DNA from: Psammoneis japonica
Taxonomy: Eukaryota
Assembly (NCBI GenBank): GCA_008632985.1
Contig: QPGO01000326.1
Coordinates: 1-53,583, forward strand
Length of the DNA stretch: 53,583 bases
Direction of reading: 5' to 3'
In this document: one piece after another, positions 22,050-51,355 of the stretch
How the letters are laid out: the number at the start of each line of letters is the position of its first letter
Position numbering within the stretch: position 1 is the stretch's first letter
Made by a program: the position numbers and the translations under genes
The notes under the pieces: generated by a model
Databases searched by the model: none
Told to the model about the DNA's origin: nothing
The model's input: the letters and a program-made list of their open reading frames with translations, nothing else

Positions 22050-22190
22050 CTATTTAAGAATCACAGGCAAAACTAGCAATAGCTCTCTAATAGATTACTC
22101 ACGCTTTTACGAAATCATGACATAAACTGGTAAACAAGCACATTTCTTTGTTTCGATTCTGAGAGATTGAGTGGAACATACTTTTTTTGG

Positions 22191-24366: not shown

Positions 24367-24727
24367 GTTGTGAATATTGTCATGACATCTATCGAGTGCA
24401 CAATTGTGTGTGTGTTTTTGTGTGCAAAACGCGAGAAACAAAGAAAAAAGGATGAGAACCCTATTCCCGCTCTTCGCGCGACTCATCCTTCTTCGATCTC
24501 ATTCATCGTGAAACTCAAAGGAATGTTTCCATGCTTTCCACTGTGCATGCACGGACGCTTCAACCACACGTTTTCATGGTGATGATTGCGATATAGGCTA
24601 GCGACGAAGCACCATCATGGTGACAAAAGGATGTCGCGACCGACGACGGATGAAATACCGTTATGGACTTTGGGCGTATGTGCGCTTTGGGTCTTCTTAC
24701 GTGACCGACGCACGCACGGACGTGACG

Positions 24728-24741
24728 CGTAGATTTCTACG
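24728..24741. promoter_or_regulatory. Palindromic motif CGTAGA-TT-TCTACG in a divergent intergenic region
   Basis: Identical to 2519-2532; lies between divergent starts at 24366 and 25164. Confidence 0.35.
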
Positions 24742-25163
24742 CACGGCGTCTGGTACGACGAAGTTGGTAGAGAAAGCTCATCACACGACATGTCGTCTGA
24801 TGCAATCAAAATACACGCAATGGCAAAGCAGACGCATACTACATGACCTCTCGAAGAGTGTATATGAAAAATGCCATGATCGAAAAAATGCGCTCATGGG
24901 TGGCTTGATTGTCATGGAGTCAAAAACATGCCGATTTGTACGGAGCCAACGCAGGTTGACGATCGCTGGTACTGAAGCTACATGGTTTCTACATACGCGA
25001 TGTGGCCGTGGAATTCAAACAAGTCAATTTTCCCGCGCCGCCAGACAAAATCGCACAGAACACGACCCAACATCATCAACCGATCGATCGCTGCAGCATT
25101 GCTTTTGTCGACGAGAGAACAACATATTCCTGTTTGCCGCCGTGACGACCTTGCGTCTTTGCA

Positions 25164-28100: not shown

Positions 28101-30020
28101 ATGACAGACCTCGCCCCGTCGGTTGCTTCCAACGCTGGACCGCCTATTCACAGCAACCCGATCCAGACTCTTGCTACAGCTGCCGACAGCCTTCACCTAT
28201 CGTACAATCGAGCAGAAGACGAACCTCTTGTCGCTTCGAATATCACTCTAAACGTTTCGAAACCCGCCGAAAAGCCGCAAACAGAGCAAGCGCCTTCAGT
28301 CGCTTCTCATATATCATCTCATGCTCACAGCGCTTCTCGCTCAAACATAAGCCTCGAGTCCACCCACACCCGGAGTAGCTCATCATCAAAGTCCAAATCT
28401 CCTTCCAACAAGACCAGAGAAGCTTCTCGTGAGAAGTCGCATACAACTTCGAACTCTTCCGCGACACATTTTGGGGTTGGCGACGCTGTCGATACGAGAG
28501 CTGGTTTAATCGAAGGGACAAAAGGCTTAGGTGGGGTAGAGGCTACCGACTTGGAGGTTCCGGGCTTTGTCACCATCCAAGGCGAAGAAGGTGCTGGTGG
28601 AATCGATAGGAAGTCCACTGTTGGTCTCGGCAAGACTGTCTTTGCCGATTCAATAGTAGAGACGATTGGACTTGGCGAGAGCTCAGGAGTCGAAAATGCT
28701 GCCAATGAAGTTGAGAGGGCGGAAGCCATTCCATGGACCACTAAGCCTGAGCGAAGAATCAGAAGCAACCAGAATGCTGGAACTGGCCTTGATTCTTCTT
28801 TCACCGTTGGGGTAGGTGAAAGTGCTGGCCTCGGAAAAGTTTCCATGGAAGTCAAGACTGCGACAACTGACGGCTCAAAGCATGCCGGTCCTGAAGGGAG
28901 GGAGAAAATCGTCGAAAACGACTCCGATGTGGCACCAAAAGGTGGTTCTTCTTCTTTCACTTCTACGAACAAGACGCTGAATGAGGGCGGCAGTGTAGGT
29001 CCTGGAAACGTTACCAAGACAACCGAGAGGGCGACGTCAAGCGGCATGACGAAAGCTTGTCCCCAGACTGATGAGGAAAAGACCATCAACAACTCCGCCG
29101 CCGTTGGATCTAGAGGTGGTCCTGTCGTTACCATTCCCTCCGAGTCCGCCAGACTAGGTGGAAATCCTGGTGTTGGTCCCGGACAAGGTACCAAGAAAAA
29201 GCAGAGGGCGACAACTCCTCAAATCGGAATAAAACGGGTCGGCTTTGCGCTCCACGATACCACGGACGTGTCAGATGAGGAACGAATTGGTGCAGCGCGT
29301 GTCACAGCTCCAGATGCTTTTGCTGAGGAAGGCTGTGTGCCGGCCAATATCTCCCAAACGCAGCAGAAGCGCCACACCGCAGCTTCTGGCACAGCTGTTG
29401 CTGGTGCTATTGCACGCGAACATGCATGCGTGCAACAATCCCAGACCGGCACTGCTTTTGTCACGCCTTTTCCACCCCACGATCAACGCCAAGTGACGGC
29501 CGAAGAAAATAGTGATTGTGTCTCTGAGAATGCTACGCCTTTTCTTTCGAAGCTAGAGAAAGCTTTGAATGATAATGGTTTTCCTAAGGATGAAATCGAC
29601 AACAAAGTAGCACACCGTTCATATTGTCGTCAAACGACATTTGATCGTAACGAGGGAAATGACAACGGCGCTCATTGTCTTGATCAGAGCAGGATCTATG
29701 GCACTGGTCCATGTGCTGGTCAGAGCTCCGCTTCTGACAGCATTCACGGATCGCTCTGCGTCTCCTCGCAAGCCGCCTCGGACGATCAGTGCAAGCTTGC
29801 CAAAGGCAGTCGGCTGCATCGCAGTAACAGGACATACTTTTCGTTTCGTGGTTGCCGGAGGCTTCTCCTTTTGCTCTTACTTACGCTGACTTTATCGGTT
29901 GTGCAAACCCCTCCCTCTGTCGCCGTGTTGGCTCCTCTGCATCCCGAATCGTTCAACGCGATTGCAGATCGTTGGCTTTCTGAACGACACGGTGGTGTTT
30001 CGTTTCTCACGTTGAATTGA
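25164..30020 (+). CDS. Large low-complexity hypothetical protein (basic NLS-like patches)
   Basis: Consecutive ORFs 25164-, 25322-, 26983- and 27561-; intron 27557-27627 (GTGAGT..CCTAG) joins the last two in frame; frame changes near 25320 and 26985; KETLW repeat. May be more than one gene; 3' end uncertain. Confidence 0.6.
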
Positions 30021-30130
30021 GTTTCGGCCGCATAAAATGGAATGAAAGGCAGGTTATGGGAATAGGAGAATTCCTTATCTTTTCCCTTACCGGATGAGGT
30101 TTCGGCTGGTGTCTTGTCCACATCTTGCCG

Positions 30131-30502
30131 TCAAAAACTGTAACTATCCGACCACTTGCTAAAATAGCTGCTCCTAGTTTTCCACTCGCTCTCTAGCCTT
30201 TGCCACTTGTTGTTTCCGAAGCGAAATATTGTTTCATCTTCTTGAGATGTCTTGAATTGCGCTGTGTGGCACCAGACTGCCTGTTCTATCCCTAGAAGCG
30301 ATTCCAGGGAATTGGGAGCGAGTGCAGATGACTTACCGATCCTCCAGTGTGTTTGAAGTACCGGAGATTTGGGGAAGAGAATCAAAAGTTATCGAGTAGA
30401 ACACTAGATTACTTCAGATAGGTTGATGACAATGCGTTTCTGGTGGTTCTTGAGGACCAAGTCTGCGGATGCCTTATCCTTCTCAGGCATTGTTGAACTC
30501 AT
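30131..30502 (-). CDS. Possible small gene divergent from the peroxiredoxin
   Basis: ATG 30502 (MSSTMPEKDKASADLVLKNHQKRIVINLSE) followed by a possible GTAATC donor, then ORF 30131-30385; splice acceptor not resolved. Confidence 0.25.
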
Positions 30503-30738
30503 CCGTGACCGACCGCATCCCGTGACTGCCACGCGTGAACTTCAACTTGAGTGACACTGCTTTCTGAGCAGTCTCTCGTAGCATCCCGTATGGATTCTAC
30601 GCAAAGGAGGCATTTTGAGATTGCGTTCTGAGTTCAGCGGGCGTTTCGCTTTCATTCCCGCCTTCTCGACCGCTCTCACAATCGAGATCTTCACGGCAAC
30701 ACCTTTCTACCTTAGCAACTGCAGCGACAACAACAACC

Positions 30739-31609
30739 ATGGGAGGACCTGGACTCAACGATACTGTAAGTCATACATGATTATAAGAATTGCGAAATCG
30801 CCTTCACGTCATTCACCTTGCTTACGATTTTCTCGTCCTGTATCTTGGCTTCACGTGATCCGTTCTCAGTTTCCGAATCTTCAAGGATCCACTCAAGATT
30901 CTGACTCGTTTGATCTTTACGAGTACATTGGGGACTCCTTTGCAATCATATTCTCGCATCCGGCGGATTACACGCCAGTCTGCACCACCGAGCTGGGTGA
31001 GGCTGCGCGTTTGGCTCCCGAATTTGAGAAGCGCGGAGTCAAGGTGGTTGGATTTCTTGCAACGATTCTTCCTCTCACAAGGGATGGGTCAAGGATATCA
31101 AGTGCGCCACTGGATCAGAAGTGACGTACCCTCTCTTTTGTGATCCAAACCGAGAGCACGCTTACGCGCTGGGCATTCTCGACGAGACCAACAAGAATGC
31201 AAAGGGCTTGCCTCTCTCGGTTCGTTCGGTCTATTTCCTTAAACCCGACAAGACGATTGCGCTCATGTTGACATATCCGGCAACCACCGGAAGGAACTTT
31301 GACGAAGTTCTCCGCTGTTTGGATTCTATTCTTCTACGTCGAAGAAACAGGTGGCGACGCCCGTGAACTGGAAACCGGGTGACGATGTCATGGTGAACTT
31401 CCCACTCTCGGATGAGCAGGCGGACGAAACCTTTGGGAAGGTGGGTCCTTCAAATTTTGGGAGTAGCTCTTCTATTTCAAATCTGTTTATAACAGCCTTT
31501 CTGTTTTTCTCGTTATCTACAGGATGGATACAGGATCGTGGATGTTCCTTCGGAAGAAGGAAAGGACCTCCCCAAGCACTACATGCGTTTTACTGCGTGC
31601 CCTAAGTAG
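30739..31609 (+). CDS. PRDX6: 1-Cys peroxiredoxin (Prx6 family)
   Basis: FSHPADYTPVCTTELG signature, YPATTGRNFDEVLR, ATPVNWKPGD; introns 30766-30869 and 31441-31522; two apparent 1-nt deletions near 31055 and 31335. Confidence 0.92.
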
Positions 31610-32323
31610 GCAGGATGGTACTTCGGGCTCATCTGAATTAGTCATCGTGCACGCATAAATCAGAGAAAGATGCTGCAAGGATGTTTATTTTGGGATATTG
31701 TTGGGGAAGGCTTTTTAGAACCAGCAACGAAAGAGATATAGAAATACGTTGAAATTAGAATACTACTAGATGTTCACAGAGCCCATGATGGACTGCTACT
31801 AATTACAGATGACTCACTGTAGCACGGTTTTACCTGGCTCATTCTTTCGTGGCACCATCAGCCTTTGAACAGGCTAAGGCAATAGCGTGACATGGAAGAA
31901 CCGCTTCTACAGAATCACGAGAGTACTCTATTGGGGCGCACGCGTATTGTGATATATATTTTTCATCTTGTTTCCTGGAAGATTCGCCAAATGCTGTTCC
32001 GCGAACAACCCGAATAGAGTGAAACTGGGGTTATCTGCGTCAAATTGCTCAGTTGAGACCATGTGCGGTAGACGTCGAAGCCACATCCTAGAGAAAAAGA
32101 AAAAAAAAACACCGAACGAGACAGAGGTAGGCAAACTTAAAGTCACACAACTTTCATGTGATATGTAGACTGTTAGCGCACTCTAGAGCATGGCAAACTA
32201 GACCTCTACTGTAGCTACTAGCTAGCTCGTAGTACGCCGCCCAGCGATCCACCCCAGCTGTGCCACTGCCAACCAAACCGGATCCTAACCTGTATCATAA
32301 ACAACGCCAACGTCTACGCCACA

Positions 32324-33530
32324 TTGACAATGCGCAGACGACTGCACATCGGTGCTGCACAAGGGTCACGGTGCTCCCGTCTCAACGCACTGCGAACAAT
32401 CATGACAGCCATCGACGACATCTTTCGACCACTCAATGCCAATGACACGGCACAACGTCAAGAACCCATCTCAGTGAAAAAATTGCGCAAAGGAGATGCA
32501 ACCTGGTCGACACAAAAGGAAGTGCTGGGGTGGCTGATCGACACCCACTCCATGACACTGCGCCTCACTGACTGTCGCCTTGCAAGACTCTGCACTGCTC
32601 TCCACCAGGACTCCCCCCACCAACATAATTGAGCTGCCACTTCTGACTGCCACCGCCTGCTTGGTGAGCTCTGCTCACTGTCAACAGCAATCCCCAGATC
32701 ACGTGGTCTGTTTTCCAAACTCCAGAAACTGCTGCGCCAAACACCACACCAGACTCCTGCACATGTCTCACACTGACCTCCATGCAATTATGGACAACTT
32801 TAGAGACCTCTGCACCACCCTTGAACTCCATCCAGCACACCTCCAAGAGCTGGTCCCGCTTGAACCCACCGGTGCATGGATGCCACGATGCTGCCGGTCA
32901 GGGTGCAGGAGGAGTGCCACTGCCCACAAATGCGCTGCCACCGTGCCACGGGCAACTAAACTCAAGTTTGGCCCTTCTGCACGGGCCCGCCGTCAAACCT
33001 CCTCCTGCCCAACAGTGTGGCAAATGCCCTTCCCAAAGGACATGACATCTGACCTTGCAACCTGCGACAACCCCACCGGAACTACAACCAACACCAATCT
33101 CAAGCTCGCAGGTGGCGTTGTGCAAACACATGCAGCCTCCAACTGTTTCGACATGCAAGAACGCACTCACCTCCAATGCACTGACAGTCCAGGGACCATG
33201 TTCTGGCAACAAAAAGGATCCTTGACTGCTGCCAAAGTTCGTGCTTCTCCACTTCATTGCCAAGCCCACCACCAACATTTTCATCAGCAACTCACGCTAC
33301 ATGACTGCCTGCCGGGCCCCCTCAACACTGCCGGCAACAATGCCTCACGCTTGCAATCCCTTGCTGACACCAAAATTTTGCGCCACTTTCACTCTTGTTG
33401 TCCCCAGAACAAACCTTGGTGCTTGTGGACCCCGCCACCCGCACTGTGTTCCTTCGTGACCTCCGTGCTGCACAAGAAGCAGTGCCCATGCAGTTGCCTC
33501 TTCACGAGCCTCCGCCGCCAACACCACACT
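32324..33530 (+). pseudogene. RT C-terminus/RNase H remnant of the YR retroelement
   Basis: EPISVKKLRKGDATWSTQKEVLGWLIDT; GCHDAAGQGAG, TNTNLKLAG, HDCLPGPLNTAGNNASR; frameshifted. Confidence 0.8.
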
Positions 33531-34520
33531 GTGGCCATCGATTGACTCCTTCGTAAAATCAACAATCCCGTCCTCCACCTCCAAGTCTGCCTCCACTGAT
33601 GCCGCATCGGCATCCTCGCACCACGTGGCCATCCCGTCCGTGGATGCACTGCTGAAATGCCTTGCTGTCTGTTGGCCAAACGTTTGCTGCAATGCGGTCC
33701 CCGGACCTGCACCTCACACCACAAGGGGGTTTTGATTTCTGACTCACCTGTCAAATCCATCATTGCAAGAAGCAAGATCCTCCGCCAGACAGAGTCAAGC
33801 CCATCCCGGTTGCCGTCCTGCATTGGGTCCTCTCCGCAGCCGCCCTTGGCCAACACCCGGGCACCCAAGTGATCACAGATGTGATTGCTCTAGCCTTTTT
33901 CTTCCTTTTGCGCCCTGGCAAATGCACTGCCATGCCTTCTGACACCACTCATTTCCAGATTGCCAATGTGCATCTCTCTGCTGGTGGTGCACATCTCAAC
34001 CTGTTTGAAGTGCCCACAGCACAGCCAATGGCCGCCACCTTCACCACCCTCACCTTCGCCGACCAAAAGAATGGTGTGCGCAGTGAAGTCACAGGTCTGG
34101 GCCTTTCTGGCCACCCCCAACTGTGCCCAGTTAAAGCAGCAACACATCGAGTGTTGCACTTGCGCGCCCACGGTGTGCTCCCGGACACCCCCCTCTCTGC
34201 ATGCTTTCATGATGGTGCATGGCACCAGGTCAGCCCAGTTGACATCACATCCATCCTCCACACTGTTGTCACTGCCCTTGGCCCCCAGAACCTTGGTTTT
34301 AACCCTTCTGATGTTTCCACACACTGCCTTTGTGCCGCCGGTGCCACAGGGGTTGCTGTGTGCCCAAGTGGACACTGACATCATCCGTCTCTTGGGACAC
34401 TGGCGCTCCGATGAAATGCTGCAATGCCTCCACCTCCAAGCAGAGCCCATCATGAGCAATTTCTCACAATGCATGCCAGCCGGTGGGAACTTTGTCCTTC
34501 ACCCCAATGACGATGTCCCA
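33530..34520 (+). pseudogene. Tyrosine recombinase remnant
   Basis: KQDPPPDRVKPIP, FFFLLRPGKCT, QKNG, CPVKA, IRLLGHWRSDEMLQCLHLQA; the catalytic Tyr position reads Cys. Confidence 0.85.
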
Positions 34521-34613
34521 CTTGCCCCCAACATGCCTCAAGCACCACAGCTCACCAGCCGGTCCCACCTCTCCCACCCAAAATTCACTTGTGCCTCCTT
34601 TGGAGGAGCTGGA

Positions 34614-35051
34614 GGCCCTTGCCATCCAGCCTGGGTTTTCTTGGGAGAGTGCAAGCCTGTGCCAGCAAAGGCCTCTCCACTCCCAGATTGGTTTGGCCCT
34701 GGTCTGGCCACTGAGTGTTGCTGCAGTGGACAAACAAGAAAAGCGGCAACAGCCACTGGCCTCAAGCAACACACCAAGCAAGATCCCCAATTCCGTTGAG
34801 CACACAAGCGACCCATGAGCTGCCTGTCCAATGAAGCTTGCTCATTCTTTTGAGACAACAACAGCAAGTCAAAGTGGGTGGCTTTTGACACTCCCACCTC
34901 TCCCGCCCTCTGGCCCTTGCCATCCAGCCTGGGTTTTCTTGGGAGAGTGCAAGCGCCTGCACCAGCAAAGCCCTCTCCACTCCTGGATTGGTTTGGTCCC
35001 AGTCCAGCTGCTGAACATTGCTGCAGTGGACAAATGAGAAAACACAGCAAC
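34614..35051 (+). repeat. Pair of about 140-bp direct repeats (34614-34750, 34912-35051) at the element 3' end
   Basis: Both start GGCCCTTGCCATCCAGCCTGGGTTTTCTTGGGAGAGTGCAAGC; mismatches are mostly TG/CA swaps. Confidence 0.9.
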
Positions 35052-35109
35052 TGGATCCCCCATGCTCCACATTGAGTTTGACGATGGTGGTGCCTGTGAC
35101 GTCAATCTA

Positions 35110-35552
35110 GAGTGCAACACACAGCCACTGACAAGAGCCAATGCATCACGGCAACGTGTTGCAGCCTTTAAATGTCACAAAGGGCATGACAAAAACAACC
35201 TTTTGTCTGCATGCACACTGCGTTGTGAATTCACAGCGGAGTGGTTCATCGCAACCATTGGGCAGGAGGCCAGGGGTTCGAAACCCTGAGTGGGAGTTGT
35301 CTGCAGCAACGTTGATCACTGTCGAACGCGCAAAACTCTGTGCAGTTCTGTGTGTTCCTTCGCACGCACCCACACTGTTCCGCCAAAACCGTGCAGTGTC
35401 AGCACACGTCAGCAAAGAGCCGCATGGACGCGTGACACATGGGGAGGAGTGCAACACACAGCTGCTGACAAGAGCTGATGCATCACGGCGACGTGTTGCA
35501 GCCTTTAAATGTCACAAAGGGCGTGACAAAAACAACCTTTTGTCTGCATGCA
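35110..35552 (+). repeat. 106-bp direct repeat pair (35110-35215, 35447-35552)
   Basis: GAGTGCAACACACAG...TTTTGTCTGCATGCA twice; differences are 2 CA/TG and 2 CA/CG. Confidence 0.92.
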
Positions 35553-36047
35553 TGCTGCAAGAGGAACATGTCCAGGGAACCAATCTCTGTCATTTGCTGG
35601 ACAAGGGAAAAAACCGGATGCTGCCAGCAGCTCTGTTTGAAGATTGTGTCATCAAATGGCTCTGGAGAACTGGTTTGCACGCACACACACACACACGAGT
35701 TGAGCATTTTTTTGTCACCTTCTCCTCAGAGTTGACCTTGCATCTGACTCGCACAATGATTGACAACATTATAGAAGTTTCTAAAACATCGTGTGCACTC
35801 TGCTGTTTGCCAAGTCAATGCACCACGCATGTCATTTTGCAGTTTTGCAGGCACAAGTCTGGATTTCATGAGTGCATTTGCAAACAATGGGAGGCTGGTG
35901 TCCGTTGACACCGGCGCCCATTTGAAAGACAGGAAACAGGGGAAAAGCCTTTTCCAGCAGTGCACTTTGCTTGCAGCATCCTCGCCAATGTCACAGTGAC
36001 CAGAAGACTGATGCCACTCCCTGGGAATGAAACAACAGGACAGACCT

Positions 36048-36243
36048 TGACAGAATGCCGAAGGTCGACAATGACAGAGGCATGAAAGACTCCCCAAAGC
36101 ACCAGGACTGTGACAACACGAGTGCCAGCAGATGAGAAAGTGAGAAGCAGATCTCAGAGAGATCTGCTTGTCTGTCCAAATGGTCCAGCCATCATCCGCA
36201 TCCAGTCTGTCCATCGTGCGACATGTGGATGAGCAGGCTGACA
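36048..36243 (-). repeat. 3' LTR
   Basis: Matches 43052-43247 with 10 transition differences. Confidence 0.96.
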
Positions 36244-36253
36244 CCCTCCCCTG
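36244..36253 (-). promoter_or_regulatory. Polypurine tract
   Basis: CAGGGGAGGG on the minus strand immediately before the 3' LTR. Confidence 0.8.
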
Positions 36254-36416
36254 ATCTGCAATGTCTCAACACAGAAAACAGGACAGATCAAACCAAAGAA
36301 CAGGGATGACACAGGGAAACAGAGAGACCAGACACAGGACACAATGAGTGTCCATGCCCAATGCGCCATCAAACAAGGGGGCAATGCGCAGCAGGGAGGC
36401 CACCGTGGAAAAAATG

Positions 36417-39400
36417 TCAACAGTGGTGTCCCATCATGCGTCGAGCGCAGCGAGCGTGTGGCACCCAGCCAAGGGCCTTGGCAAGGTCATCGCTGGGGTT
36501 GATGATGCCAGGAACATGTCTTGTGACAATCTTGCCCGCTTCCTTCCATTTTTGGATCGCAAAAAACTGGATCTCAACATGACGGGATCGCTCAGTCGGG
36601 ATCGAGTGATTGATGATCTTGATCGCCGATTCGTTGTCAATGTGCGACGGGGTTGCCTTCGTCTGAGGGAAGCCTGGATCATGTGGGATGTGATGAAGGC
36701 AAAGGACATGCTTGGCAGCAGTGCCAGCAGCACAGAATTCAGCTTCCGTAGAACTCGCAGCAGTCACCGATTGGGTCTTGCATCAAAAGGATGTGGCAGC
36801 ACCGGCTAACATGCAAGCATGGCCGGTCGCAGAGCGACGGTTGCGGAGGTCATTGCCATGTGCAGCATCCAAAAAAGCAAACAAGTTGATGATCATGTTC
36901 CCGGGAAAGGGAACGAAGGTGGTGTCGGGTCTGGAGTGAGACGTTCGAAGGGGCAGGCGGGCAGTCTTGAGTCTCGGGCAGGCTTCTTGCAATTCAATTC
37001 CCAATGCTTGGTGCGTCGAAGGTGCTTGCATGCGCCCTTGAGTGCATCACAGTGAACCAAAGCAGGACAGGCAGAGAACTTGGAGAGAGCAGTGACAGCA
37101 CAGCCAACATCCAATCAACAGACAACGTGCGCACGCAACAATTCACCAAGGAGAGTGCGGCACCCAAAGCCAGCAGCCTGTTGCAACTCCGCATGTTCCG
37201 AGGTTCCTTCAGCTGGACCAACAGCAGTGTGCAGTTCACAAACAGAGTCAACTGGAATTGGCGCAGCCTTGCAGTCATTGACGAGTTCTTCGTCTGTCGG
37301 TGTCGACCATCCATGCGAAGTACAAACCCGATCAACATGGCTGTGAACAGCAATGCCAATAGAATCATCATGTTGATGGATGTCCACACCGTTGAATTCT
37401 TCAATCATGCCAAGATGCTTGAAAGGCAGAGAAGCTTCCGATTCCAATTGAAGAGCTTCACCAATCTTGTCATGTGTCTTGATCGCAAGGGACTCTTCAG
37501 GACACGCAAGGGAGAAGTCATCAACCTGGCAGAGGAGTGAGATCTTGTGTCCCTCAAAAGCAGCGGAACAGATGCATTTGTCATGAGCAGCATTGCAAAA
37601 AAGTAGATTCACATCAGACAAAATGCTGTTGATGTGCGTCTCCCAGAGCACGCCGGCTTCTGGGTGTCCTTGAAGTGCATGTTGCATTGGAAGCACCATG
37701 GTCCTGTCCAAATCAATGCCAAACCGAGCCTTGCACCAAGTGGCATGTGCTTCATTGACAGCAACATGGACGGGGTGTGATGGTCGCGGGGAGTGTGCGT
37801 GTGCATCACGAGCGTCACCACCAAATGCAGGGTAGCTCACAGTCGCAGCAAGAGCAAAAAACATGCGTTGGATGGGTTGTTCCACACAAGAGGAGCAGGT
37901 CGAGTGAAGATGGTGGAGAATCGACGCAGCATGTGGGGATCCATCACAGCATTGTCGAGATCATCGCGTGCCATCATGCTTGAGATCACATTGCCAATGT
38001 GGACGAAGAACTGTGGCATCCTTTGGACGTTTAATGGTGCACCAAACATCCCCAACTCATGAAATTGGTCGAGTTGTTTGAATTCACCCGCATGCCATTC
38101 GGGCCAGGTGTCCAATTTCTTGAGACGATGGCGAGTGAAAGCACCTGACGCTTGTTCCTCCAGGGCAATCGCATGAGAAGAAATGGTGCAAATGTTGACC
38201 ACACCATTGTCGCAGTCGACATAAATTGGCGGAGGGACGTCATCATCGTCCACATCAGAAAAATCAATGTCAGGGTGACGGATGGCAGCAATGGCATGCA
38301 TGTCAGCAGTGGCAATTTCCGGGACATGCTCATCATCAGGGTCAGGAGTCGGTGCATGGATGTTGTGTTCCATCAGGGCACATTGGAGAGCCTGGGAGTC
38401 CAGTCGACGTTCCGGCATGAATTCGATTTCAAAGTGAGTCTTGCCTGAATCACAGACTTGTTGAAAACGTTTGACAGCCTCCTCTGCCGTGAAGACAGGA
38501 TGATCATCGATCACACGACATGCGCAACCTTGATCTTGTTGTGGGTGGCCTTCAAAGAAGAGAAAAGACGCACAGCAGGAGAACCACGCTTGACATCAGA
38601 GACAAATGCTCACCGACAGAGATCGTCCGTAGCCAAGGAAAGTCCAAACGTTGGATCAGCAAATGGTCCCTTCATCGCACGCTTGATGGTCTTGGCAAAA
38701 GGATTCCCATGAAAGTGAAACTCATCCATCGTGGATTCTTCAGTTTCGGCAGGCAAAGCCTTGCCATCTTGAGTGCGTTCCAAGTGAACCACATTCGGTG
38801 GAAGAGAGTCGTGGGGTGGATCATTCATGCCCTCATCACAACGGATGTGCTTGGCAAGCTTGATGCGCGATGTCTCAGTGTCATGCCAAAGGATGTTCTT
38901 GGCAGTGTCCGGAAGATGGCCTGAGAACATTCCCTTGCGAGAGACAGACCAAAATTTTGCTGGGCGGTGATTCGACGCACGCACCCACACTCGACAACCA
39001 AACGTACGAAAGTTCTTGAAATCACCCTTCCAACCAGCAGCGAGAGCAATCGGAGCAGCAGGTTGTCTGCGGGATGGCATGGCATTGTTGATTCAAATGA
39101 AATGATGAAAAGCACAGGGCCAGAATTTCATGGGCAAATCGGCGCCGATTGGCATCACCCGGATGGCATTGGCAACAGTCAAATGACTGCGTTCCACTGG
39201 GCCACTCTGATTTGAAGCATCTTTTCCCGCAGGACGAATTGTCATCCTCAAAGAGTTGCCGAACTTCTGGGTTTTGATGCAATTCACCCCCTTGATCCAC
39301 AAATGCATGTTCATCTGGACATTTTGGCGAGTGCTCTTCCAGAAAGTGGCGAAACCAATTCAGAGGGGTTGCCTTGGAGACCCGGGTCGCACCATGGAGA

Positions 39401-40800
39401 CGCTTCATTTTATGATCGTAGACAGTGATCCAACAAGTCTCGCCATTCAACCCAACATGGTCTTTGGTGCACTCCGAGTTCTTGGACCGCAGGCCAGAGA
39501 AAGAAAAATCAACCGTGAGGCCTTGGTGTGTTTGGGTGGCAGTAAGAGTGGTGTTCGGACCGGCAGGTTCCTTCGTCTGCTTTGCTCGCACACATGTGGG
39601 ACAAGTGTCGAGGGGAGAAGTTCCGTGGGCAAACTTGGGGACGCCATCAACATGTTCATGGGCATGACAAAGGCAGTGATCACTCGGATGACCAAGTTGC
39701 TGATGCCACAAAAGGCGTTCCATGTCGGCCTTGAGAGATTGCACAGGAACATTCTTCTCTGCATGCTTTTCAAAAGGGACATCCTGATGGACACGGGGGA
39801 TCAACTTGCGTTCAGCACGAAGAGCATCATGTTGGTGAGCATGATGCATTTCAATCATGTGCGCAGAAACCGCTTCACACTCATCGGCAAAGGAAGGGTC
39901 GCTGGTCTTGAGGTGCTCAACAGATGCATCCAATTCATTGGCAGATTCTGGGAGGATGAGAGGGTGAGCAGGACATTTGCCATTGAACAATTTCCCATGG
40001 ACAATGATGTCCTGATTCTTGCACAATCGATGTCGTGCAACAAACTTGCAGGTGCCGAGATCATGGAACTTGAGGATACAGTCAACATTGCAATCTGCAC
40101 GACAAGAACCATTTTGACGAAGGAGGAGTCGCCCATCGACCAACGTAGATTGGATCTGTGGGTGGCAGTGTGCACGGACCTCAACACAGCCGTCAGAGTT
40201 CTCTGCAGGGATGCGAAGACAGCCGAATCCAACTGGGACAGCTTGGTGGCCAAGGGCCAGATTGACGGCAAGGGGACAGGGATGGGATGGAGTGAAGTCT
40301 TGGTGTCGATGGAGGAGGTCACGGTTGCCTGTGCACGCAATGTCAGCACCAGCATCCAACTGAGCACAACGTTCATTCGGAGCAAAATTTACCCCATTGA
40401 CAGAACAAGTGGAGCGCAGCAGTTCCGGCTCAGGTGAGTGACTCGCTTGGCATGGATCGATCGGAGCAACACAGACAGAATTGACGGCAGCAAAACCGTC
40501 TTCAACAGCCATGTCATCACAGGTGAGATCAACACATTCCTCAAAATCCGGTGTTTCTGGGTCTTCCCTCCCCTGTTCCAAAGGATCCGGAGCATGAGCA
40601 GCATTGACGGTGGCTTCTTGAGGAGCAGGATCATCATCGGGTGACGTGCTGGCATCAAATGATGTCTTCGTGGAGGTGGAAGGGGTGGCATCCACATCAA
40701 TCTGTGAGGAAAGAGGCATTTCAGCGGCAGATGACGAGACGGTTAGTCCCTCTTTCAAGGTCATCCCGCTGACATCAGTCTTGTCTCGGTGAGGAGACAA
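36417..40800 (-). pseudogene. Copia pol (protease, integrase, RT, RNase H)
   Basis: AQLDAGAD; LWHQQLGHP..CPTC; DQGGEL, GPVERSH, FWPCAF, RTFGCRVWV; LQGHPEAG, QVDDF; SSTEAEF, IDNESA, RSRHVEI, NPSDDLAK; frameshifts and stops present. Confidence 0.93.
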
Positions 40801-42790
40801 CGGGCAGCATCGGAGATCCGAAACCAGCTGCGATGGCCCGATTGAAAATCCGAGGGTGGAGTGCTAGATGGAGGTGGATTTTCAGGATTGTCATGATGGG
40901 GTGGGAGTGACCCTTGGGGTCCTTGGAACTCAGAAGCATGCACAGCTGCTTCCCGTTTTAAGAATTGACAAAAATGGATGTGGAATCCCTTGATGTGCGG
41001 GTTGTTCTTCAGGACTGGACAGTCATCAAATGAATGCTCTCCAGAGCAGACAAGACATGGTTTCTTGGAGGCTTCATGCAGAGCAACTTTCAGTTTGCAG
41101 ACTGAAGCCGAACATGCATGGTGAAGAATGCGATCTTCATCCGTAGATGGGATCTCGAGTTCATGCAATTCGTCGCAAAGAGTGTCAAAGGCATCCGGAG
41201 GTGGAGACTCTGTGCCAGGATCTTCAGTGGCAGAGGCATCAACTGGTTCTTGAAGGGGCATCTCAGGGATCTGGAGAGAATTGACATTGACAGGTGTGCA
41301 TCGCGCAGCAGCATCTGCTCGATTCCATGTGCGGCATGGGTTGGATTCATCGCACGAGTGGCAAGGGATGGACTGTCCGGTTGGCGGAGGAAATCAGAGA
41401 GAGTCTCGACAATCTGTGCATCCGTGTGCTTCTTCTGCACAGCTGGAGACTTCCGTTCATCTCTGGCAGCACGTGATGAGAACTTGGAGCACTTGGCATT
41501 CTTGACAAAGACAGTCATCTCTCGTGGATCGTTCAATGTAGAGTCCGCATCAAACATGTGGGCACGTAGCTGGAGGAAATCATTGAAGATCATGTGGCAG
41601 TCCGTCAATGATTGATTGCCTTGGACAGGATGGGAATCAACAAGTCCAGCAGCATCGTGATCAAAGGCAGGATGATTCTCACAGAAAATCTGCTTGAGGG
41701 CCTTGCATCCGTTGCTGCAGCATGATGCAACAATCCGATGACATTTGCCATTCTTGGGAAACATGTCCGACTTGGAAAGGATTTTGTGGAGAGAGCTCTG
41801 AGCTTCCTTGCAGTGGACGTACATGCGTTGTGGCAAGTCATCATCCTTGCTGTTTCCGATCTCAAAACCCTTCTCACCACTGTGGTCCTTGGCAAAACAC
41901 CACAGGGGATGCATGTGGCAACCTGAATCAAAGGCATGACGTTGGAAATTTTGGCACCATGCTCGTGTCCCAGGGGAAGAGTCGTCACGACATGCAGGAG
42001 GTTCCCTGAACAACATTTTCTGGTCAGGAGTCGAGCGCATGATGAAAAGGGCACCATCATCAAGGATGACACGATCGGATGCATCAACACAGTGACGGAA
42101 TCCATGGTCGTGAGGGACGAGAGAGCTCTGAAGAGTGACTTTTCCATCTTCTTTGCGGTCGTAGCATGCACAAACATCTGGAGGAAGTGTGTTTGGATTG
42201 AAGAGATGTTTTGACGTTGCGGAGGATGCAGTGCTTCCAGATGTCTCAGCAGAAGCTGTAGAAGGCAGAGCATGACTCGATGCGCATGCATTGAGTGCAT
42301 TGACCAAGTCAGTCACAGTCAATGCAGCAGGTCCTGCAGTTTTCTGAGAAGAAGACGGAGGCTGCTGTTTCTTCTGGCAGGGTGCAAGAGAGAACTTGTT
42401 CCAATTGCGACAGTTCCATGTCATGTCCGGATCAACACATGTGTGTTGGGTGGAGATGAGAACAATCAAAGATTGCTCATTGTTCAGGAGATTTGTCTTG
42501 ATCAGCTTTGACAAGACTGGAGTCGTCAAACAGACTGGACGAATTCTTTGAGAGTCAACAAGTCGGAATGGGGCTTGATCCACAATCGTCTTGATTGATT
42601 GCATGTCTGCAGGATCAGCGGTGTAGGGTGGAAACGCTTCGTGGATGAAGCAATCACGAAGTGTGTCCGTGAAATCTTTCTTGGGTTGCGCATGCTCTGG
42701 GTCGTCAAAAAACGGGTCCAGATCAGTTGTGGAGTCCGCATGAATCGCGTTCAGGCAATTGTGCAGATGTGGTGTCGTTGCATGTGCCTT
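40761..42790 (-). pseudogene. Copia gag
   Basis: Long ORF 41090-42604 upstream of pol; zinc knuckle CLVCSGEHSFDDC near 41020-41060. Confidence 0.75.
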
Positions 42791-43040
42791 GATTCACAGC
42801 AGATCTCTGCAATGGACGACAGAGCGGGCTTTGTGGTGTCGGAAGACGCCATGGTTTTAGTGGGTGGAGCCATTTTTGGTCATGCACGCGTGGAAATCTG
42901 GTGTGTTTCTACGACCGTGAAAAATGCCGGGAAAGTGAGATAAAAAGTTGTCTGATCAGACAATGAGGCTCGCTCGATCGGCTCACAAAACAAATGGGTC
43001 GAAGCAGAAAGCTTGGCGCAGAGGTCTGTGGCACAGCGCA

Positions 43041-43051
43041 TGGCCACAACC
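43041..43051 (-). promoter_or_regulatory. Primer-binding site (mutated)
   Basis: GGTTGTGGCCA directly after the 5' LTR; resembles the GGTTATG.. half-tRNAiMet PBS of Copia with TA->TG. Confidence 0.6.
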
Positions 43052-43247
43052 TGACAGAATGCCGAAGGTCGACAATGACAGAGGTGTGAAAGACTCCCCA
43101 AAGTGCCAGGACTGTGACAACATGAGTGCCAGCAGATGAGAAAGTGAGAAGCAGATCTCAGAGAGATCTGCTCATCTGTCCAAATGGTCCAGCCATCATC
43201 CGCATCCAGTCTGTCCATCACACGACATGTGGATGAGCAGGCTGACA
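43052..43247 (-). repeat. 5' LTR
   Basis: Pairs with 36048-36243. Confidence 0.96.
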
Positions 43248-43509
43248 GACCTTGAAATGTCTTGGAATGCTTTTGCGGGTGAGGAAGATTGACTCCAACT
43301 CTCTAGCTGGCTTTGTTCATGGTGTGTCTTTGTTGCCATCTGGGCAGCACACAAGCCACAAGTGGGCTGTGCGAGGGGTGCAACAACAACAACAACAACA
43401 ACAGGTGAAAGAGCGCACAAGGCGGCGACCACACGGTTTGCCATCTTTGAGCTAAAATGCATGCACTGCTGCATGTGATGCATGCTGTGGGGAGGAATGT
43501 CAACACTGT

Positions 43510-44790
43510 TCAAAACCTCACAGCTTGGCCAGTCAGTGGCATTTCTTCCAGCAGCACTTGTCTCCAAGCATGCTCCTCAGGGCAGGCACCCAATTCCACA
43601 TCACATTCAAGTGCCAATGCTGCGGCTGTTTGCACAAGTGTGTGCCGCCACGACACCCCAACTCATTTCTCCCTCTTGATTTTTAAACAATTCCTCTTGA
43701 AACTCTGCAACCTGTTGTGAGTGTGAGGCATTGTTGTTGTTGTTGTTGTTTGCTGATGCTTTTTCAAGAATGGCAGATGTGGCTGGGAGCGCTTGCTTTT
43801 TCTTTTGCCCGTCCTCATTTGCTTTTGTCTTGGTGTTTCAGCGATTCTTTGACAAGTGAAGGAGCATTTGAGGTTGGAGTTGAAACTCAAATTTACAATG
43901 CACTCCACAATGGGGACAGGATGGAATGATGGTTGGATGACTGTGGATGCAATCCAAAGCAGACCCATGCCATTGTTGCTGTCACAGTCATTTTTGTTTT
44001 CATCCGGCCACTGACAGCACCACAAACACTGCTCCTGTGCACATTCTCGGGATGTCCAATTCAAGCACAAAATTCCAATGTGATGGGATCCTTGGCTCCA
44101 ACACTGGTGCTTCCCGTCATTTGGTTTAAATCATCTTGATTCAAATCAAAATCATCATTGTCAAATGGAGTTTTGCGCTCCTTTTCATTTTCAAATGACG
44201 GTGGTTCCTCTTCCACAACCAATTCATGCTTGGCAAAGATGGATGGCAAAAATGCATCATCTGCAGTTGATTGAAACACGTGTTTCTTGTGTTTGACTTG
44301 ATGTTTGCATCCACAAAACGAAACTCCCTGCAGGGGACATTTTCCCTTGCCACTTTGTCCACATGCTTGACAAAGCGAAAGGTTCCAACAGGACGGTGTG
44401 TGATTTTTCCAATCATCACTCAACAACAAGTCATCCTGGCTGCAGGGACAGAACTCATTTTCTTGCGGCAGTTGTGTTTGCAACACTTGAATCATTGCAT
44501 GGCACCCAAAGATGCGCAGGGTCCGATGAAAGGCATGAAGAGCCGGAGTGCACAATTGACAAAGAAATTTCAAAGGACCATTGCACACAGGACAAGTTGC
44601 CCAATTGATGCTTGGAAGGTCCAGTGGATTCAACCACAATGGTTTGATGCCCATGTGACTGCTGTCCCAATGGTCCACCAATTGGGCTCTCTTGCGAAAC
44701 TCTGTCATTGTCATGAGTTGGCTCTGCAAACCCCAGCTGAGCGCCTTGAAAACAACTGTCATCAGCAGCACTGCTGTCATCAATGGACAT
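43510..44790 (-). pseudogene. PDCD2: PDCD2 (programmed cell death 2/TSR4-like) pseudogene
   Basis: QLGFAEP; KPLWLNP..CPVC..PLKFLCQL..AFHRTLRIFGC; QLPQEN; MYND-like CQACG..FCGCKHQ; CPHCG..KFEFQLQPQML; WGVVAAHTC; EEHAWRQ; frameshifts and stops; 3' end approximate. Confidence 0.85.
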
Positions 44791-45174
44791 TTTTCTCCAC
44801 GTGTCTTCCCTCTGTTGTTGTCATTCTTGTTGCTGTTGTACCTGCCAAAAAGTTGTGAAAGAACAAAAGCTTAAAGCTGTGATGAGATCGCGACTTTTTT
44901 GTGAGGTGATTTGACACAAACTCATAACCCAACAGACACGCCCTCACAGACAGACAACAGAAGAATTCGACAATACAATGTCATACAAATTGTTTCATCA
45001 AAATGACAGGTCATTACGTCTCGCGGTAACAAAGTCATTGTATGATATGACTTTTACAAATTAATTATGCCCTGGAACCATCTTCTAGAACCTGCAGACA
45101 TTCCACGACCACTTTGTTGAACAAATCATCACAAAATCGCCCTCACAATTTGTGCAGTCGACGCCTGAATCACC

Positions 45175-45471
45175 ATGAAGACCTCTGTCTATTCTCTCTT
45201 TTTGCTCCTCCTTGCGGTATTTGCTGTCTCTTCTACGCATGCCCTCAAGCAGGAGAACAGAGGCTTGAGGCGAGGCGATGGGGACGGACGCCGCGAGAGG
45301 AAGCGTGAAGAACGCAAGGGCGCCAGGGAAGGAATGACCAGGGAAGAACGCAAAGGCGTCAGGGAAGGAGTGACGAGGGCAGAACGCTTGGCGGCTCGGG
45401 CGGCGAAAAAGGCGGCGCGTGCTGCGAAAAAGGCTGCACGGGCTGCCAAGAGGAAGCAAACGGCGCCCTAG
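45175..45471 (+). CDS. Small secreted Lys/Arg/Ala-rich protein, paralogue 1
   Basis: Signal peptide MKTSVYSLFLLLLAVFAVSSTHA, RGL motif, AARAAKK repeats. Confidence 0.85.
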   Translation: MKTSVYSLFLLLLAVFAVSSTHALKQENRGLRRGDGDGRRERKREERKGAREGMTREERKGVREGVTRAERLAARAAKKAARAAKKAARAAKRKQTAP

Positions 45472-45514
45472 AGATACTTCAAGTCGTTTTGTGGTTGAAA
45501 CATTGCCAAGAAGG

Positions 45515-46050
45515 AAAAATCATGGGTTGCAAGGACAAGAGCGACGAGAAAAGGTTATTTAGAAAGATTGTGACTGTAACTTTAGAGAGACTGCGATTTA
45601 CAATACTTCATTGTGCACTCCGTTGAAAAGATCATAGCTACTCTACGTGCTGCCGATCGTTTGCTATTTGTTGCAAGTGGATGTAAAGATCCACCACATG
45701 GCAACAAGTGTTTTTCGATTCAAAGAGACCAACGTACTTCATGGGACTGCTTCAATGACTACCCATAGGGCAAGAATCGAACGAAAAAGTGAGCATCGAC
45801 GGGACGTTTACACATCTACTTACAACACTGCGAAACTAGAAATGCCATGGGTTGTAAGGACAAGAAAAACGAGTGATTGTTCTTTGTTGTTGACTTGGGA
45901 TAGCTTGAACGTACAGTCCCGTTGAAAGGATGAAAGCTACTTTACTGAGGCTCATTCGCTCTTTGATTTGAGTGGATAATAGAATTCCAAGATATTCATG
46001 AAAAAGTGAGCATCGACAGGATGAAGACACACCCACTCCTACAGACACTC
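45515..46050 (+). repeat. Diverged tandem duplication of the downstream non-coding segment
   Basis: CATGGGTTG(C/T)AAGGACAAGA, CGTTGAAA.GAT.A.AGCTACT and AAAAAGTGAGCATCGAC each occur twice in the same order. Confidence 0.7.
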
Positions 46051-46254
46051 TCAAAGGACTCTACCCTGCCATTTCGTGATGAAGAAGAAGCCGGAAATGT
46101 CTTTTTGATGAAACAATTAGAGGTCTACTGCCAAAAATATCTTCCGAACCCATCGACATTTTCGTTGATGCCGACACGTGACTGACGGTGCGCCACTCGA
46201 CACAAACTCACAATTTCGAATTTCCAACAGTCGTTACACCGTGATACCGTCATC

Positions 46255-46571
46255 ATGAAGACCTCTGTATATTCTCTCCTTTTGATTTTCCTTGCACTTT
46301 TTGCGGCTTCTTCTACTCATGCCCTCGAGGACAACGGATCGAGGCTCATGGCGGATGCTGCTTATTCCAGAGCCGAAAAGATGGCAGAGCGCAAAGAAGG
46401 CCGCATTCGGGGAGGAATGAGGAAGGATGCACGCAAAAAGGCAATTGCTGCAAGAAAAGCTGCTCGAGCCGCACGAAGGCTGCAAGAAAGGCTGCACGGG
46501 CTGCCAAGAGAGCCGAGAAAAAGGGAAAAATGGAAAAGACCCCAGGTGATAAAGGAGAGGAACAGCCATGA
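46255..46571 (+). CDS. Small secreted Lys/Arg/Ala-rich protein, paralogue 2
   Basis: Homologous signal peptide; restoring one A near 46476 gives KAARKAARAAKRAEKK...GEEQP-stop, matching paralogue 3. Confidence 0.78.
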
Positions 46572-47292
46572 GAAGAGTGTCTGAACCAGAACGAGTCGAT
46601 CACTGTAGTGCGAGTCGCTGCCATTATGCTGGGTTTCATATTTGAAGAAGGAAAATTGAGTTACAAAGGAAAGGGCGACTGGGTTGATTCTTTCACGACG
46701 GTAACTTTATAATGAGCGACTGTTGATCTATTCTTTGGTCTTCTGTCCTCGAAAATAATAAACTTAGATGAAACCTGGAAAGGTTGCACTTTGGTTCAAA
46801 CGACTAGGGCCCTACCGAAATCAACCATGCAGCCAAACTAAGGACGTCGAGGTCGCGAGGTCGTGAAATGAGTGGTCATGAGGTTTCATCTGCTTCTCTT
46901 CTTGTTTCTGCTCCCTTTTTTAGAAGTGCCAGAAGCAGGAAAGAAAGGGTTCAAAAGATTTTTCTCTGCAATGCGTGGAGCGGCATTCGCCAATGAAATC
47001 ACGCTTCCAACGTGAAATGAAACTCGACAAAAGGTTTCAAAAGTCACATTCGCTGCATGGATGACTACTGCGGTACGTAGAATACTACATTGGTCGTTGT
47101 GTCTTGTGGCATTCACAGGTCATGACGAGAAGTGACTTTTCTGCAACAATTAACGGCGCACTTCGTTCGGAAGCACCTTCCAGAACCGTGGTGAAATTCT
47201 GAGATTCGACCAACTCACTTTTTCGTTCTCACAATTTCGATTTCCATCCAGTCGTTTCTTCATTACTGCTCTACCGCATTTGTAACATCACC

Positions 47293-47640
47293 ATGAAGAC
47301 CTCCATCTACTTTCTTCTTTGCCTCTTCCTTGCTCTGTTTGCAGTTTCTTCGACGCAAGCCCTTGAGGAGAGCGGAGCAAAACACTTGGATCGTGCCGCA
47401 AAGAGGGTGGAACGTGCCGAACGCAAACAAGGCGTCAGGGGAGGAATGACGATGGAAGAACGCAAAGCGAAACTAGCCTCCAGAAAGGCTGCACGGGCTG
47501 CCAAAAAGGCTGCAAGAAAGGCAGCTAGGAAAGCAAGTAGAAAGGCTGCACGAGCTGCCGAGAGAGCCGCGAAGAAGGCTGAGAAAAAGGCAGCCAGGAA
47601 GGATGCCCGCAAGGAAGGCGAAGAAGAATACCCTTTATGA
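47293..47640 (+). CDS. Small secreted Lys/Arg/Ala-rich protein, paralogue 3
   Basis: MKTSIYFLLCLFLALFAVSSTQA followed by many KAAR/KAAK repeats. Confidence 0.85.
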   Translation: MKTSIYFLLCLFLALFAVSSTQALEESGAKHLDRAAKRVERAERKQGVRGGMTMEERKAKLASRKAARAAKKAARKAARKASRKAARAAERAAKKAEKKAARKDARKEGEEEYPL

Positions 47641-50445: not shown

Positions 50446-50727
50446 ATAGAAAAGGAGCAACCTTTGTTCATGCATTGGAGGCAGAGGACAATGTTGGCAA
50501 TGCAGCGGATGTGCTGATCCCAAGCAAACCTGCTTTTGCACTTGTTGCTTTTTTGCATCAACCAGCATCAAGTGGCTCAAGACATTGAAGCATCCAAGGC
50601 TGTCACAACAAACTTTCAAAGTCAAGTGATGGGTGTCAGCCACATCATTTGCATGATGTTGCCATGGGAAAACCCAGTCTGCCTTTTTCAAGTGTGGCTC
50701 ATCTTTGAAGTTGCATCTGCAATTTAA
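50446..50727 (+). pseudogene. Remnant of a conserved domain often found N-terminal to TPR/kinesin-light-chain-like repeats
   Basis: FCINQHQV...HIICMMLPWENPVCLFQVWLIFE resembles the recalled CINQH...PWxxPxYLxRxWCxFE motif. Confidence 0.45.
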
Positions 50728-51283
50728 AAGGGGAAAATGATGGTTGGAGCAAAAGATGTCAAGACACCATTGGTGCTCCTCTCTGCACAGGCAGCTCAGC
50801 TCTTTTTCTGTTGCTTTCTTCTTGACATGTGATTTTGACCAGTTGCTCCTCGACAAATGATTTTGACTGGTTGCATCTTTTGGACAATGATGAAAATTCA
50901 GCTCTGTTTGTGCCAACACCACTTCTCCTCTGTGACTGAATCATCCTGGATGGAAGTGACTGGTGCAGCAGCAGTGGACATGCATTGTGAGCAACAAACA
51001 ACTCTGGACCAAGCAATGCTTGATTTGACAAACAATGGGACAGCTTTGCATTCATTTTGTTGCTTGTTGCTTGTGCAGCACTCAGTCTCTGTCTGCTCTC
51101 TGGCTGGAGCAGCCACTGGAACAGAGCAGTTGTTGTTTCTCTGCCAGTGGTGTGTCCACACAGATGCCATGACACCACACATGCCATTTCTGTCTGTGCC
51201 AGAACTTGTGCTGATTCTGCAGGATGGCATGTGAGATGCCATGTTTGTTTGTGACAGTCACTTGGAACTTGTGCCACTCCAAT

Positions 51284-51355
51284 GGGTCTGTGCCCAAAAG
51301 GCAAAAGTTCAAGTTGCAAGGGTCTGTGCCTAAAAGGCAAAAGTTCAAGTTGCAA
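51284..51355 (+). repeat. 36-bp tandem duplication
   Basis: GGGTCTGTGCC(C/T)AAAAGGCAAAAGTTCAAGTTGCAA twice. Confidence 0.95.

Follow-up and report, generated by a model that had tools for sequence, protein, structure and literature searches.

Evidence for targeted TpA hypermutation in transposon-rich DNA of the diatom Psammoneis japonica

Long stretches of a contig of the diatom Psammoneis japonica (QPGO01000326.1, assembly GCA_008632985.1) are nearly devoid of the dinucleotide TpA, while the genes beside them have a normal composition. This raises the question of what removed TpA from this DNA, in which direction and at what time the changes took place, and whether such a process is known from other organisms. 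Here, we analyse the whole stretch of 53,583 nucleotides (positions 1 to 53,583 of the forward strand; the window) and in particular a Ty1/Copia long terminal repeat (LTR) retrotransposon at 36048-43247 (minus strand), which is the sole positively identified selfish element in the TA-poor DNA. The pattern very probably reflects a real, targeted hypermutation of diatom DNA, in which TpA is turned into TpG or CpA after integration, in transposon-rich and apparently silenced DNA. The original prediction, made from the letters of the window, was a near-saturating A:T to G:C mutator that acts at TpA on both strands of repeat or silent DNA, and comparisons with homologues, with a family consensus and between the two LTRs of the element point the same way.

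TA-poor blocks and the direction of change

In 1-kb windows, the observed-over-expected ratio (o/e) of TA is as low as 0.02-0.11 across 33001-45000 and four or five further stretches, compared with 0.4-0.7 in the gene-bearing DNA of the window, and the o/e of TG and CA rises up to 1.4-2.1 inside the TA-poor stretches. Two-state segmentation on P(A|T) delimited six TA-poor segments, which together cover 30,130 bp or 56% of the window at a TA o/e of 0.04-0.14, and five normal segments with a TA o/e of 0.46-0.64 and a CG o/e of 0.91-1.21. The claim that TA is near-absent from repeat blocks and normal in neighboring genes is thus borne out. The block of nested repeats that contains the Copia element (32324-44837; 12,514 bp) has 50 TA at an o/e of 0.07, with o/e values of 0.54 for CG, 1.63 for TG and 1.67 for CA; in contrast, the normal gene-bearing DNA at 20611-32315 has 401 TA at an o/e of 0.55 and a CG o/e of 1.01. 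The edges of this block are sharp to tens of bases. On the left, 32084-32323 is TA-normal in the window with 19 TA and 32324-32700 has 1, while on the right 44500-44837 has none and 44838-45200 has 14. No terminal direct or inverted repeats were found at the block edges. Beside the block, at 45169-47525, an 80-250 bp unit is present in TA-normal DNA as three diverged copies (69-82% identical, approximately 1.08 kb apart), so these short diverged tandem repeats are not TA-depleted.

With approximate block limits, TA makes up 0.33% of the dinucleotides in the blocks versus 3.47% in normal DNA and CG 2.56% versus 5.90%, whereas TG accounts for 10.64% versus 7.17% and CA for 11.00% versus 7.11%. 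TG and CA together amount to 21.6% of dinucleotides in the blocks and 14.3% in normal DNA, and their gain offsets the loss of TA and CG. CpG decay co-occurs with the loss of TA and supplies about half of the TG/CA excess. Among the stop triplets in the blocks TAA occurs 30 times, TAG 34 times and TGA 620 times, and because TAA and TAG are nearly gone, long meaningless open reading frames (ORFs) run through every frame of the TA-poor DNA.

The Copia element has an LTR of 196 bp at either end (36048-36243 on the left in window coordinates, with 0 TA and 6 CG; 43052-43247 on the right, with 0 TA and 4 CG; both on the minus strand), and its integrase lies upstream of the reverse transcriptase, as in Ty1/Copia. 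A 5-bp target-site duplication, GACCT, is present at 36043-36047 and 43248-43252, which marks the element as a genuine insertion. The coding part is hypermutated and split over several frames. An ORF of 613 aa (39022-40863, minus strand) corresponds to the GAG-pre-integrase/integrase region and matches gag_pre-integrs just under the Pfam cut-off, as does a reverse-transcriptase fragment (37115-37960, minus strand) with RVT_2 (E=4.6e-7). In total 35 diatom Copia homologues were found with E down to 1e-106, including sequences from Cylindrotheca fusiformis, Nitzschia inconspicua, and Fragilaria crotonensis. For a NAD-binding protein of the host, most of the closest Atlas clusters likewise belong to Bacillariophyta (score 0.89, a lead only).

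In a 29-homologue alignment, the Copia ORF contains 0.16% Tyr versus 3.4% in the homologues, 6.2% versus 1.7% Cys and 6.7% versus 4.7% His. The outcome at consensus residues was scored over the whole pol region by tblastn against diatom homologues. None of the 22 consensus Tyr codons still encodes Tyr; ten have become CAY (His), nine TGY (Cys) and three something else, as had been read from the peptide strings quoted in the original prediction, all of which are present in the window. Other consensus residues are retained (His 22/24, Cys 12/13, Trp 11/11, Gln 14/14), and the retention of Tyr differs strongly from the 394 of 514 for 18 other residue types (Fisher p=6e-14). Judged by these outcomes against the homologues, TA was the ancestral state and changed to CA or TG about equally. 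Consensus Arg is retained at 22 of 43 positions and otherwise mostly replaced by Gln, His, Cys or a stop, which reflects ordinary CpG decay. The net effect of the changes is that Tyr codons are erased in favor of His or Cys and TAA and TAG stops are removed, while adjacent genes remain normal.

The two LTRs of one element are identical at integration, so that their differences date from the time thereafter. The LTRs of this element are 94.9% identical and differ at 10 bases, every one of them at a pyrimidine-purine step, with 0 differences elsewhere in the 196 bp. These differences comprise four adjacent CA-versus-TG doublets and two single CpG losses; there is no TA in either copy, and both copies retain four of the six LTR CpG sites. 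For a CA-versus-TG doublet to arise, an ancestral TA (or CG) has to be hit once per copy, with the two hits on opposite strands. The combination of many doublets, few single changes and untouched CpG sites suggests TA sites that were completed in both copies next to CpG sites that decay slowly. The TA changes thus arose after insertion, and the choice between CA and TG was made independently at each site. Because the LTRs carry opposite outcomes, neither pre-integration editing of RNA or cDNA nor inheritance from a TA-free master copy can be their source. Since background substitution is not yet visible in the LTRs, the rate at TA is probably higher than background by about two orders of magnitude or more. 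This would agree with the approximately 1000-fold excess in the chlorarachniophyte Bigelowiella natans, although the rate was measured there and is read from a footprint here.

Relatives of the element from environmental assemblies show the same signature. Five of 79 metagenome loci encoding Copia relatives have a TA o/e below 0.35, the others ranging from 0.41 to 0.86, and the low-TA loci show Tyr replaced by His or Cys (locus L052 keeps 2 of 16 Tyr, with 5 His and 7 Cys; L021 keeps 2 of 9, with 1 His and 5 Cys). For L052, the column majority of a family with 27 TA-normal members served as a stand-in for the ancestor. At 115 consensus TA sites, 26 are kept, 41 read CA and 41 TG, so 82 of 89 changes go to CA or TG. 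Retention in L052 is 0.23 for TA, 0.85 for AA (AA to AG at 15 of 225 sites) and 73% for CG. In L030, the stretch 1266-2750 keeps one of 41 consensus TA (23 TG and 16 CA, or 39 of 40 changes), whereas 2751-3711 keeps 28 of 31. Polarizing copies against a consensus, as had been proposed as a check, therefore gives the expected direction in both loci, with a CG retention of 66-73% at a TA retention of 2-23%. Four control members of the L052 family that count as normal (L023, L038, L064, and L037) keep 67-82% of TA versus 0.81-0.97 of TG, CA, AT, AA, and TT, and their TA losses go mostly to CA or TG, which hints at a low-dose exposure of many copies in this family.

An exhaustive HMMER search for Copia relatives of at least 150 aa returned 159 proteins, 10 with less than 1% Tyr and 142 with at least 2%, so it is not the case that active family members equally lack Tyr. 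The Tyr-poor relatives all come from environmental assemblies. Public collections contain Tyr-free "proteins" (P0024, P0036, P0097, P0098, P0102, P0138, P0119, P0175, P0170, and P0156), which are translations of hypermutated Copia copies and thus annotation artefacts of TA-poor DNA. That the elements inherited a composition without TA, or that TA is selected against while they are active, was considered and rejected; the doublets between the LTRs speak against it, as do the loss of every conserved Tyr and the fact that most relatives have a normal Tyr content.

The TA-poor sequence is also found in an accurate whole-genome DNA run (X1; k-mer depth approximately 50, contigs to 315 kb). X1 contigs over unique parts of the block differ from the window by 2-8 bases per 427-968 bp, and since a normal TA density would give a difference of approximately 6%, the TA-poor sequence is real in X1. 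A basecalling artefact, named beforehand as the finding that would overturn the prediction, is thereby mostly excluded. Of 1134 differences between the window and X1, 40 were listed and 35 of these were analysed, with five in the gene at 30944-31240 left out. Eight of the 35 are exchanges between TA and CA/TG, five of them within 210 bp at the left edge of the block (32084-32293), and 13 are CG versus TG/CA, with one additional TG/CA doublet. Both TA and CA/TG states exist in accurate reads and the block edge differs between the window and X1; this polymorphism suggests recent or continuing activity. Other copies in X1 differ from the window at 919 transition places versus 156 transversion places.

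Flanking bases and candidate mechanisms

Survival of TA in the window is non-random with respect to the neighboring bases (chi2=121 over NTAN classes, 9 df). Relative to normal DNA, survival is 0/65 for ATAT, 0.007 for ATAC/GTAT, 0.07 for GTAC, 0.32 for CTAA/TTAG, and 0.48 for TTAA, and a per-strand model gives survival values in the window that rise from TA-T (0.07) via TA-C (0.23) and TA-G (0.43) to TA-A (0.64). The direction of the change depends on the context as well. Tyr codons preceded by a purine (R) gave 10 His and 2 Cys, those preceded by a pyrimidine (Y) 0 His and 7 Cys (p=7e-4), and the tetranucleotide mass balance is concordant, with all four R-TA-R classes going mainly to R-CA-R. 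The preference recurs in the partly mutated environmental copies L052 and L071, which combined keep TA at 1 of 35 R-TA-Y, 11 of 23 R-TA-R, 24 of 60 Y-TA-Y, and 11 of 20 Y-TA-R sites (p=7e-5). R-TA-Y is thus hit hardest and Y-TA-R least, and the converted base pair tends to adjoin the favorable neighbor (R-T-A to R-C-A, which equals T-A-Y to T-G-Y). The CA and TG outcomes in L052 are randomly interspersed (40 runs versus 42 expected), which argues that sites are hit singly and not in strand-coherent tracts; this runs test on the L052 outcomes gave no sign of processive action on a single strand.

In the reading that we favor, TpA is converted to TpG or CpA by an A:T to G:C change at either base pair of the step, nearly to completion, inside transposon-rich, apparently silenced DNA once elements have integrated. 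Ordinary CpG to TpG/CpA decay runs more slowly in the same DNA, and the elements are scrambled within sharp boundaries with the adjacent genes spared. That the process is enzymatic, and most likely an adenine deamination in 5'-TA-3' on either DNA strand, has in our view about an even chance of being right. Inosine, the product of such a reaction, pairs with C. The candidates named in the original prediction were a TadA-like DNA adenine deaminase, Pol eta-type error-prone repair and a labile adenine modification. The process would be targeted by silent chromatin or foreignness rather than by sequence homology, and may serve as genome defence. Regional rather than homology-based targeting is suggested by TA-poor DNA that spans near single-copy summed X1 depth, a weak measure: this depth is 54-107 over the TA-poor stretches 43251-45200 and 32201-33500 versus 49-63 in genes. 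Such depth is not copy number, and old repeats may have diverged.

The most serious rival places the attack on the thymine. A TET/JBP-like or other enzyme would act on T in 5'-(R)TA-3' and leave a modified base (e.g., a 5-hydroxymethyluracil derivative) that would mispair with G or be repaired to C, giving T to C on either strand. In sequence data, A to G on one strand equals T to C on the other, and the flanking preference can just as well be written as R-T-A to R-C-A. In dinoflagellates, T is replaced by 5-hydroxymethyluracil with a preference for TpA and TpC. However, TC is not depleted (6.45% in blocks versus 6.68% in normal DNA) and no such modification was found in the diatom literature searched, so we consider this explanation unlikely. 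Error-prone repair patches in heterochromatin, made by Pol eta-type synthesis with its WA (W, A or T) hotspot, would likewise produce A:T to G:C transitions, and TA is a Pol eta hotspot. Against such repair patches, AA is largely spared, both in L052, with the retention values given above, and in the blocks (7.18% versus 8.37% in normal DNA), and near-saturation at one dinucleotide with no other change in the LTRs is unlike patchy synthesis, which makes this source improbable.

The two remaining explanations carry hardly any weight. If a modified base at TpA in repeats were miscalled as G or C and the errors fixed in the assembly, miscalls on opposite strands would likewise turn each TA into TG or CA at random, and X1 and the assembly may not be independent. 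Nevertheless, X1 contigs at a k-mer depth of approximately 50 are TA-poor and have TA as well as CA/TG alleles at some sites, the same saturated signature is seen in contigs of other environmental assemblies, and the B. natans preprint documents the mutation directly by Illumina reads. Equally remote is A-to-I editing of retrotransposon RNA by an ADAR/ADAT-like enzyme with a 5'-U preference, fixed by reverse transcription before integration. The best-characterized target is indeed a retroelement, and A-to-I editors favor UA as their context, as discussed in the same preprint (10.64898/2026.01.13.699255). Editing of a single template predicts identical LTRs, though, and here opposite outcomes occur at 4 sites; in addition, the two strands are about equally affected (10 His to 9 Cys in the window, 41 CA to 41 TG in L052) and the TA-poor state continues unbroken beyond the Copia element into its flanks.

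Several points weigh against targeted adenine deamination in silenced transposon DNA as set out above. An attack on A and an attack on the paired T would leave the same sequence. The CA/TG doublets of the LTRs could formally derive from CG ancestors, even though the deficit of single changes and the Tyr polarization argue for TA ancestry. X1, of which the library type is unrecorded, may be the assembly's own sample, and it is a check on the technology only if the reads differ. The switch in L030 near 2750 may be a real boundary or may result from a chimeric metagenome assembly; in both cases a saturated copy is present. The expected NTAN frequencies were taken from the gene DNA of the window, which is a proxy for the ancestral composition of the elements; the simple independent-strand model fits the window and not L052 with L071, and the direction rule is marginal in the environmental copies alone (p=0.058, or 0.016 with the window). 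Finally, "transposon-rich" is partly an assumption, since beyond the Copia element no TA-poor content was assigned to a family.

Relation to known mutation systems

The original prediction knew of no description of the signature in diatoms. No description of TpA-directed repeat mutation in diatoms was found in the literature searched: the available text of a Phaeodactylum study gives a GC to AT-biased mutation spectrum and lacks the word TpA (PMC6604790), and that of another article uses "TA dinucleotides" for target-site duplications only (PMC12730594). Outside the diatoms the signature has been described. In mutation-accumulation lines of B. natans, 230 of 231 de novo mutations in integrated nucleocytoplasmic large DNA virus (NCLDV) and virophage sequences were A to G or T to C, all on TpA, at a rate in viral regions of approximately 6e-7 per site per generation versus 3.5e-10 elsewhere, and the process was active in some lines only (10.64898/2026.01.13.699255). 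[quoted passage not shown]

Both systems show A:T to G:C changes at TpA that yield TpG and CpA, with TpA depletion and CpA and TpG enrichment as the footprint, in discrete foreign or selfish regions beside a normal genome, of which the Copia element alone is positively identified here. Bigelowiella is a rhizarian whereas the host here is a stramenopile, and the target is an LTR retrotransposon with surrounding repeat debris instead of NCLDV and virophage insertions. The depletion is near-complete here (o/e 0.04-0.14) and partial in the NCLDV region of B. natans (Rho 0.45), and CpG decay and the R-TA-Y preference come in addition in the diatom. The background frequency of TpA is 6.0% in Bigelowiella according to the preprint (10.64898/2026.01.13.699255), compared with the 3.47% in normal DNA of the window. 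The main text of the preprint does not contain the words diatom, flanking, or trinucleotide (10.64898/2026.01.13.699255), and relative to that main text the flanking preference is new. The diatom process is of the same kind as TpA hypermutation in B. natans and represents a second, independent occurrence in another supergroup and on another class of target; the finding is biologically real and not categorically new.

Mutation-based defence in cellular genomes is known mainly from fungal RIP and from APOBEC editing of retroelements, both of which are C-to-T systems. Like RIP in ascomycetes, the process described here makes dinucleotide-specific transitions on both strands, proceeds towards saturation, is confined to selfish DNA and destroys coding capacity. 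RIP is triggered by sequence duplication above length and identity thresholds, and it depends on enzymes of the cytosine-methyltransferase type and on the sexual cycle. It changes C to T in CpA and thereby enriches TpA, whereas here TpA goes to CpA or TpG and TA is removed. Deamination of 5-methylcytosine (5mC) leaves the same products, TG and CA, and the TA-poor segments do show CpG decay (CG o/e 0.15-0.71). It is much slower here, though, cannot remove TA, and leaves the loss of TA and the change of Tyr to His or Cys unaccounted for. As the original prediction had argued, TA lost and CA/TG gained thus fits neither 5mC deamination nor RIP. APOBEC3 and ADAR/ADAT resemble the present process in that they restrict selfish or viral nucleic acids, in their case by deaminases, and ADAR and ADAT prefer U or T 5' of the edited A. 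They differ in that their substrate is cDNA or RNA that has yet to integrate and that their action is strand-biased, whereas here both strands of double-stranded chromosomal DNA are hit about equally after integration.

The opposite process, A:T to G:C at TpA, has one earlier report, from a rhizarian alga and on integrated viruses. Its near saturation on an LTR retrotransposon and over more than half of a 54-kb window, together with its recurrence in environmental assemblies, suggests that it is widespread, which would make it relevant to how genomes evolve in a major group of primary producers. A broader scenario, which we offer tentatively and consider rather doubtful as a whole, is that stramenopiles and rhizarians share TpA hypermutation as a eukaryotic genome defence, either ancient or recruited several times, that is common in wild benthic and planktonic algae. 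An enzyme would read duplex R-TA-Y in silenced chromatin and convert A:T to G:C, as a mirror image of RIP. It would be the main inactivator of new diatom transposon insertions, within approximately 1e5-1e6 generations, and spill-over at the edges would cause fast directional change in neighboring genes. Any candidate enzyme has to account for the R-TA-Y preference and for an action that is site-by-site and strand-balanced, and a natural A-to-G enzyme that works on double-stranded DNA, if it exists, would be of interest for base editing. For genome annotation, the long spurious ORFs and Tyr-free "proteins" that TA-poor DNA yields, already present in public databases, deserve attention.

Further contents of the window

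No family was assigned to the other five TA-poor segments, which lie at 4-1983 (5 TA, TA o/e 0.04, CG o/e 0.54), between host genes at 2865-3896 (4 TA, 0.07, 0.71), and at 8119-9855 (14 TA, 0.14, 0.70), 13106-20609 (16 TA, 0.04, 0.34), and 48211-53573 (15 TA, 0.04, 0.15), the last being the most CpG-decayed. At E<=0.01, Pfam gave no meaningful family in 99 ORFs of TA-poor segments outside the Copia pol. The originally proposed identities of YR (33911/34419), piggyBac (53179), and PDCD2 (43564/43634) sequences were among those that found no match at this threshold, and a looser scan of the frames with these motifs returned PDCD2_C at E=0.12 alone. Of the statement that Tyr was lost in unrelated elements, the part on composition thus stands across segments, and the part on families narrows to Copia. 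A protein homologue search gave no matches for the TA-poor ORF 44064-44870, nor did one for the host gene at 27561-30020.

Left of the Copia element and adjoining it, the summed X1 contig depth over 34801-36100 is 30,000-39,000 versus approximately 50 in unique DNA, which marks a very abundant short repeat; direct repeats are found at 35110-35221/35447-35558 and 34614-34742/34912-35042. Two ORFs, 3181-4653 and 7698-8762, extend from the short TA-poor segments 2865-3896 and 8119-9855 into TA-normal DNA, and host exons may have been hit there. Just downstream of a leucine-rich-repeat ORF (4654-5598), a tandem duplication of approximately 155 bp (5813-6122) has an identity of 84.6% and normal TA.

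A second run, X2, is recorded as "DNA?" and skips 27555-27627, 30765-30870, and 31438-31521. Because these stretches have GT..AG ends, X2 is RNA-like and the skipped parts are introns of host genes. X2 cover is missing over most of the block at 32324-44837, which is not counted as evidence of silence. An X2 contig of 1295 nt matches the TA-poor stretch at 43516-44802 and differs from it at 132 of 1192 aligned bases (approximately 11%), which suggests that a relative is expressed from another place in the genome. X2 depth is very high over the gene around 30.9-31.6 kb, where it reaches approximately 41,000.

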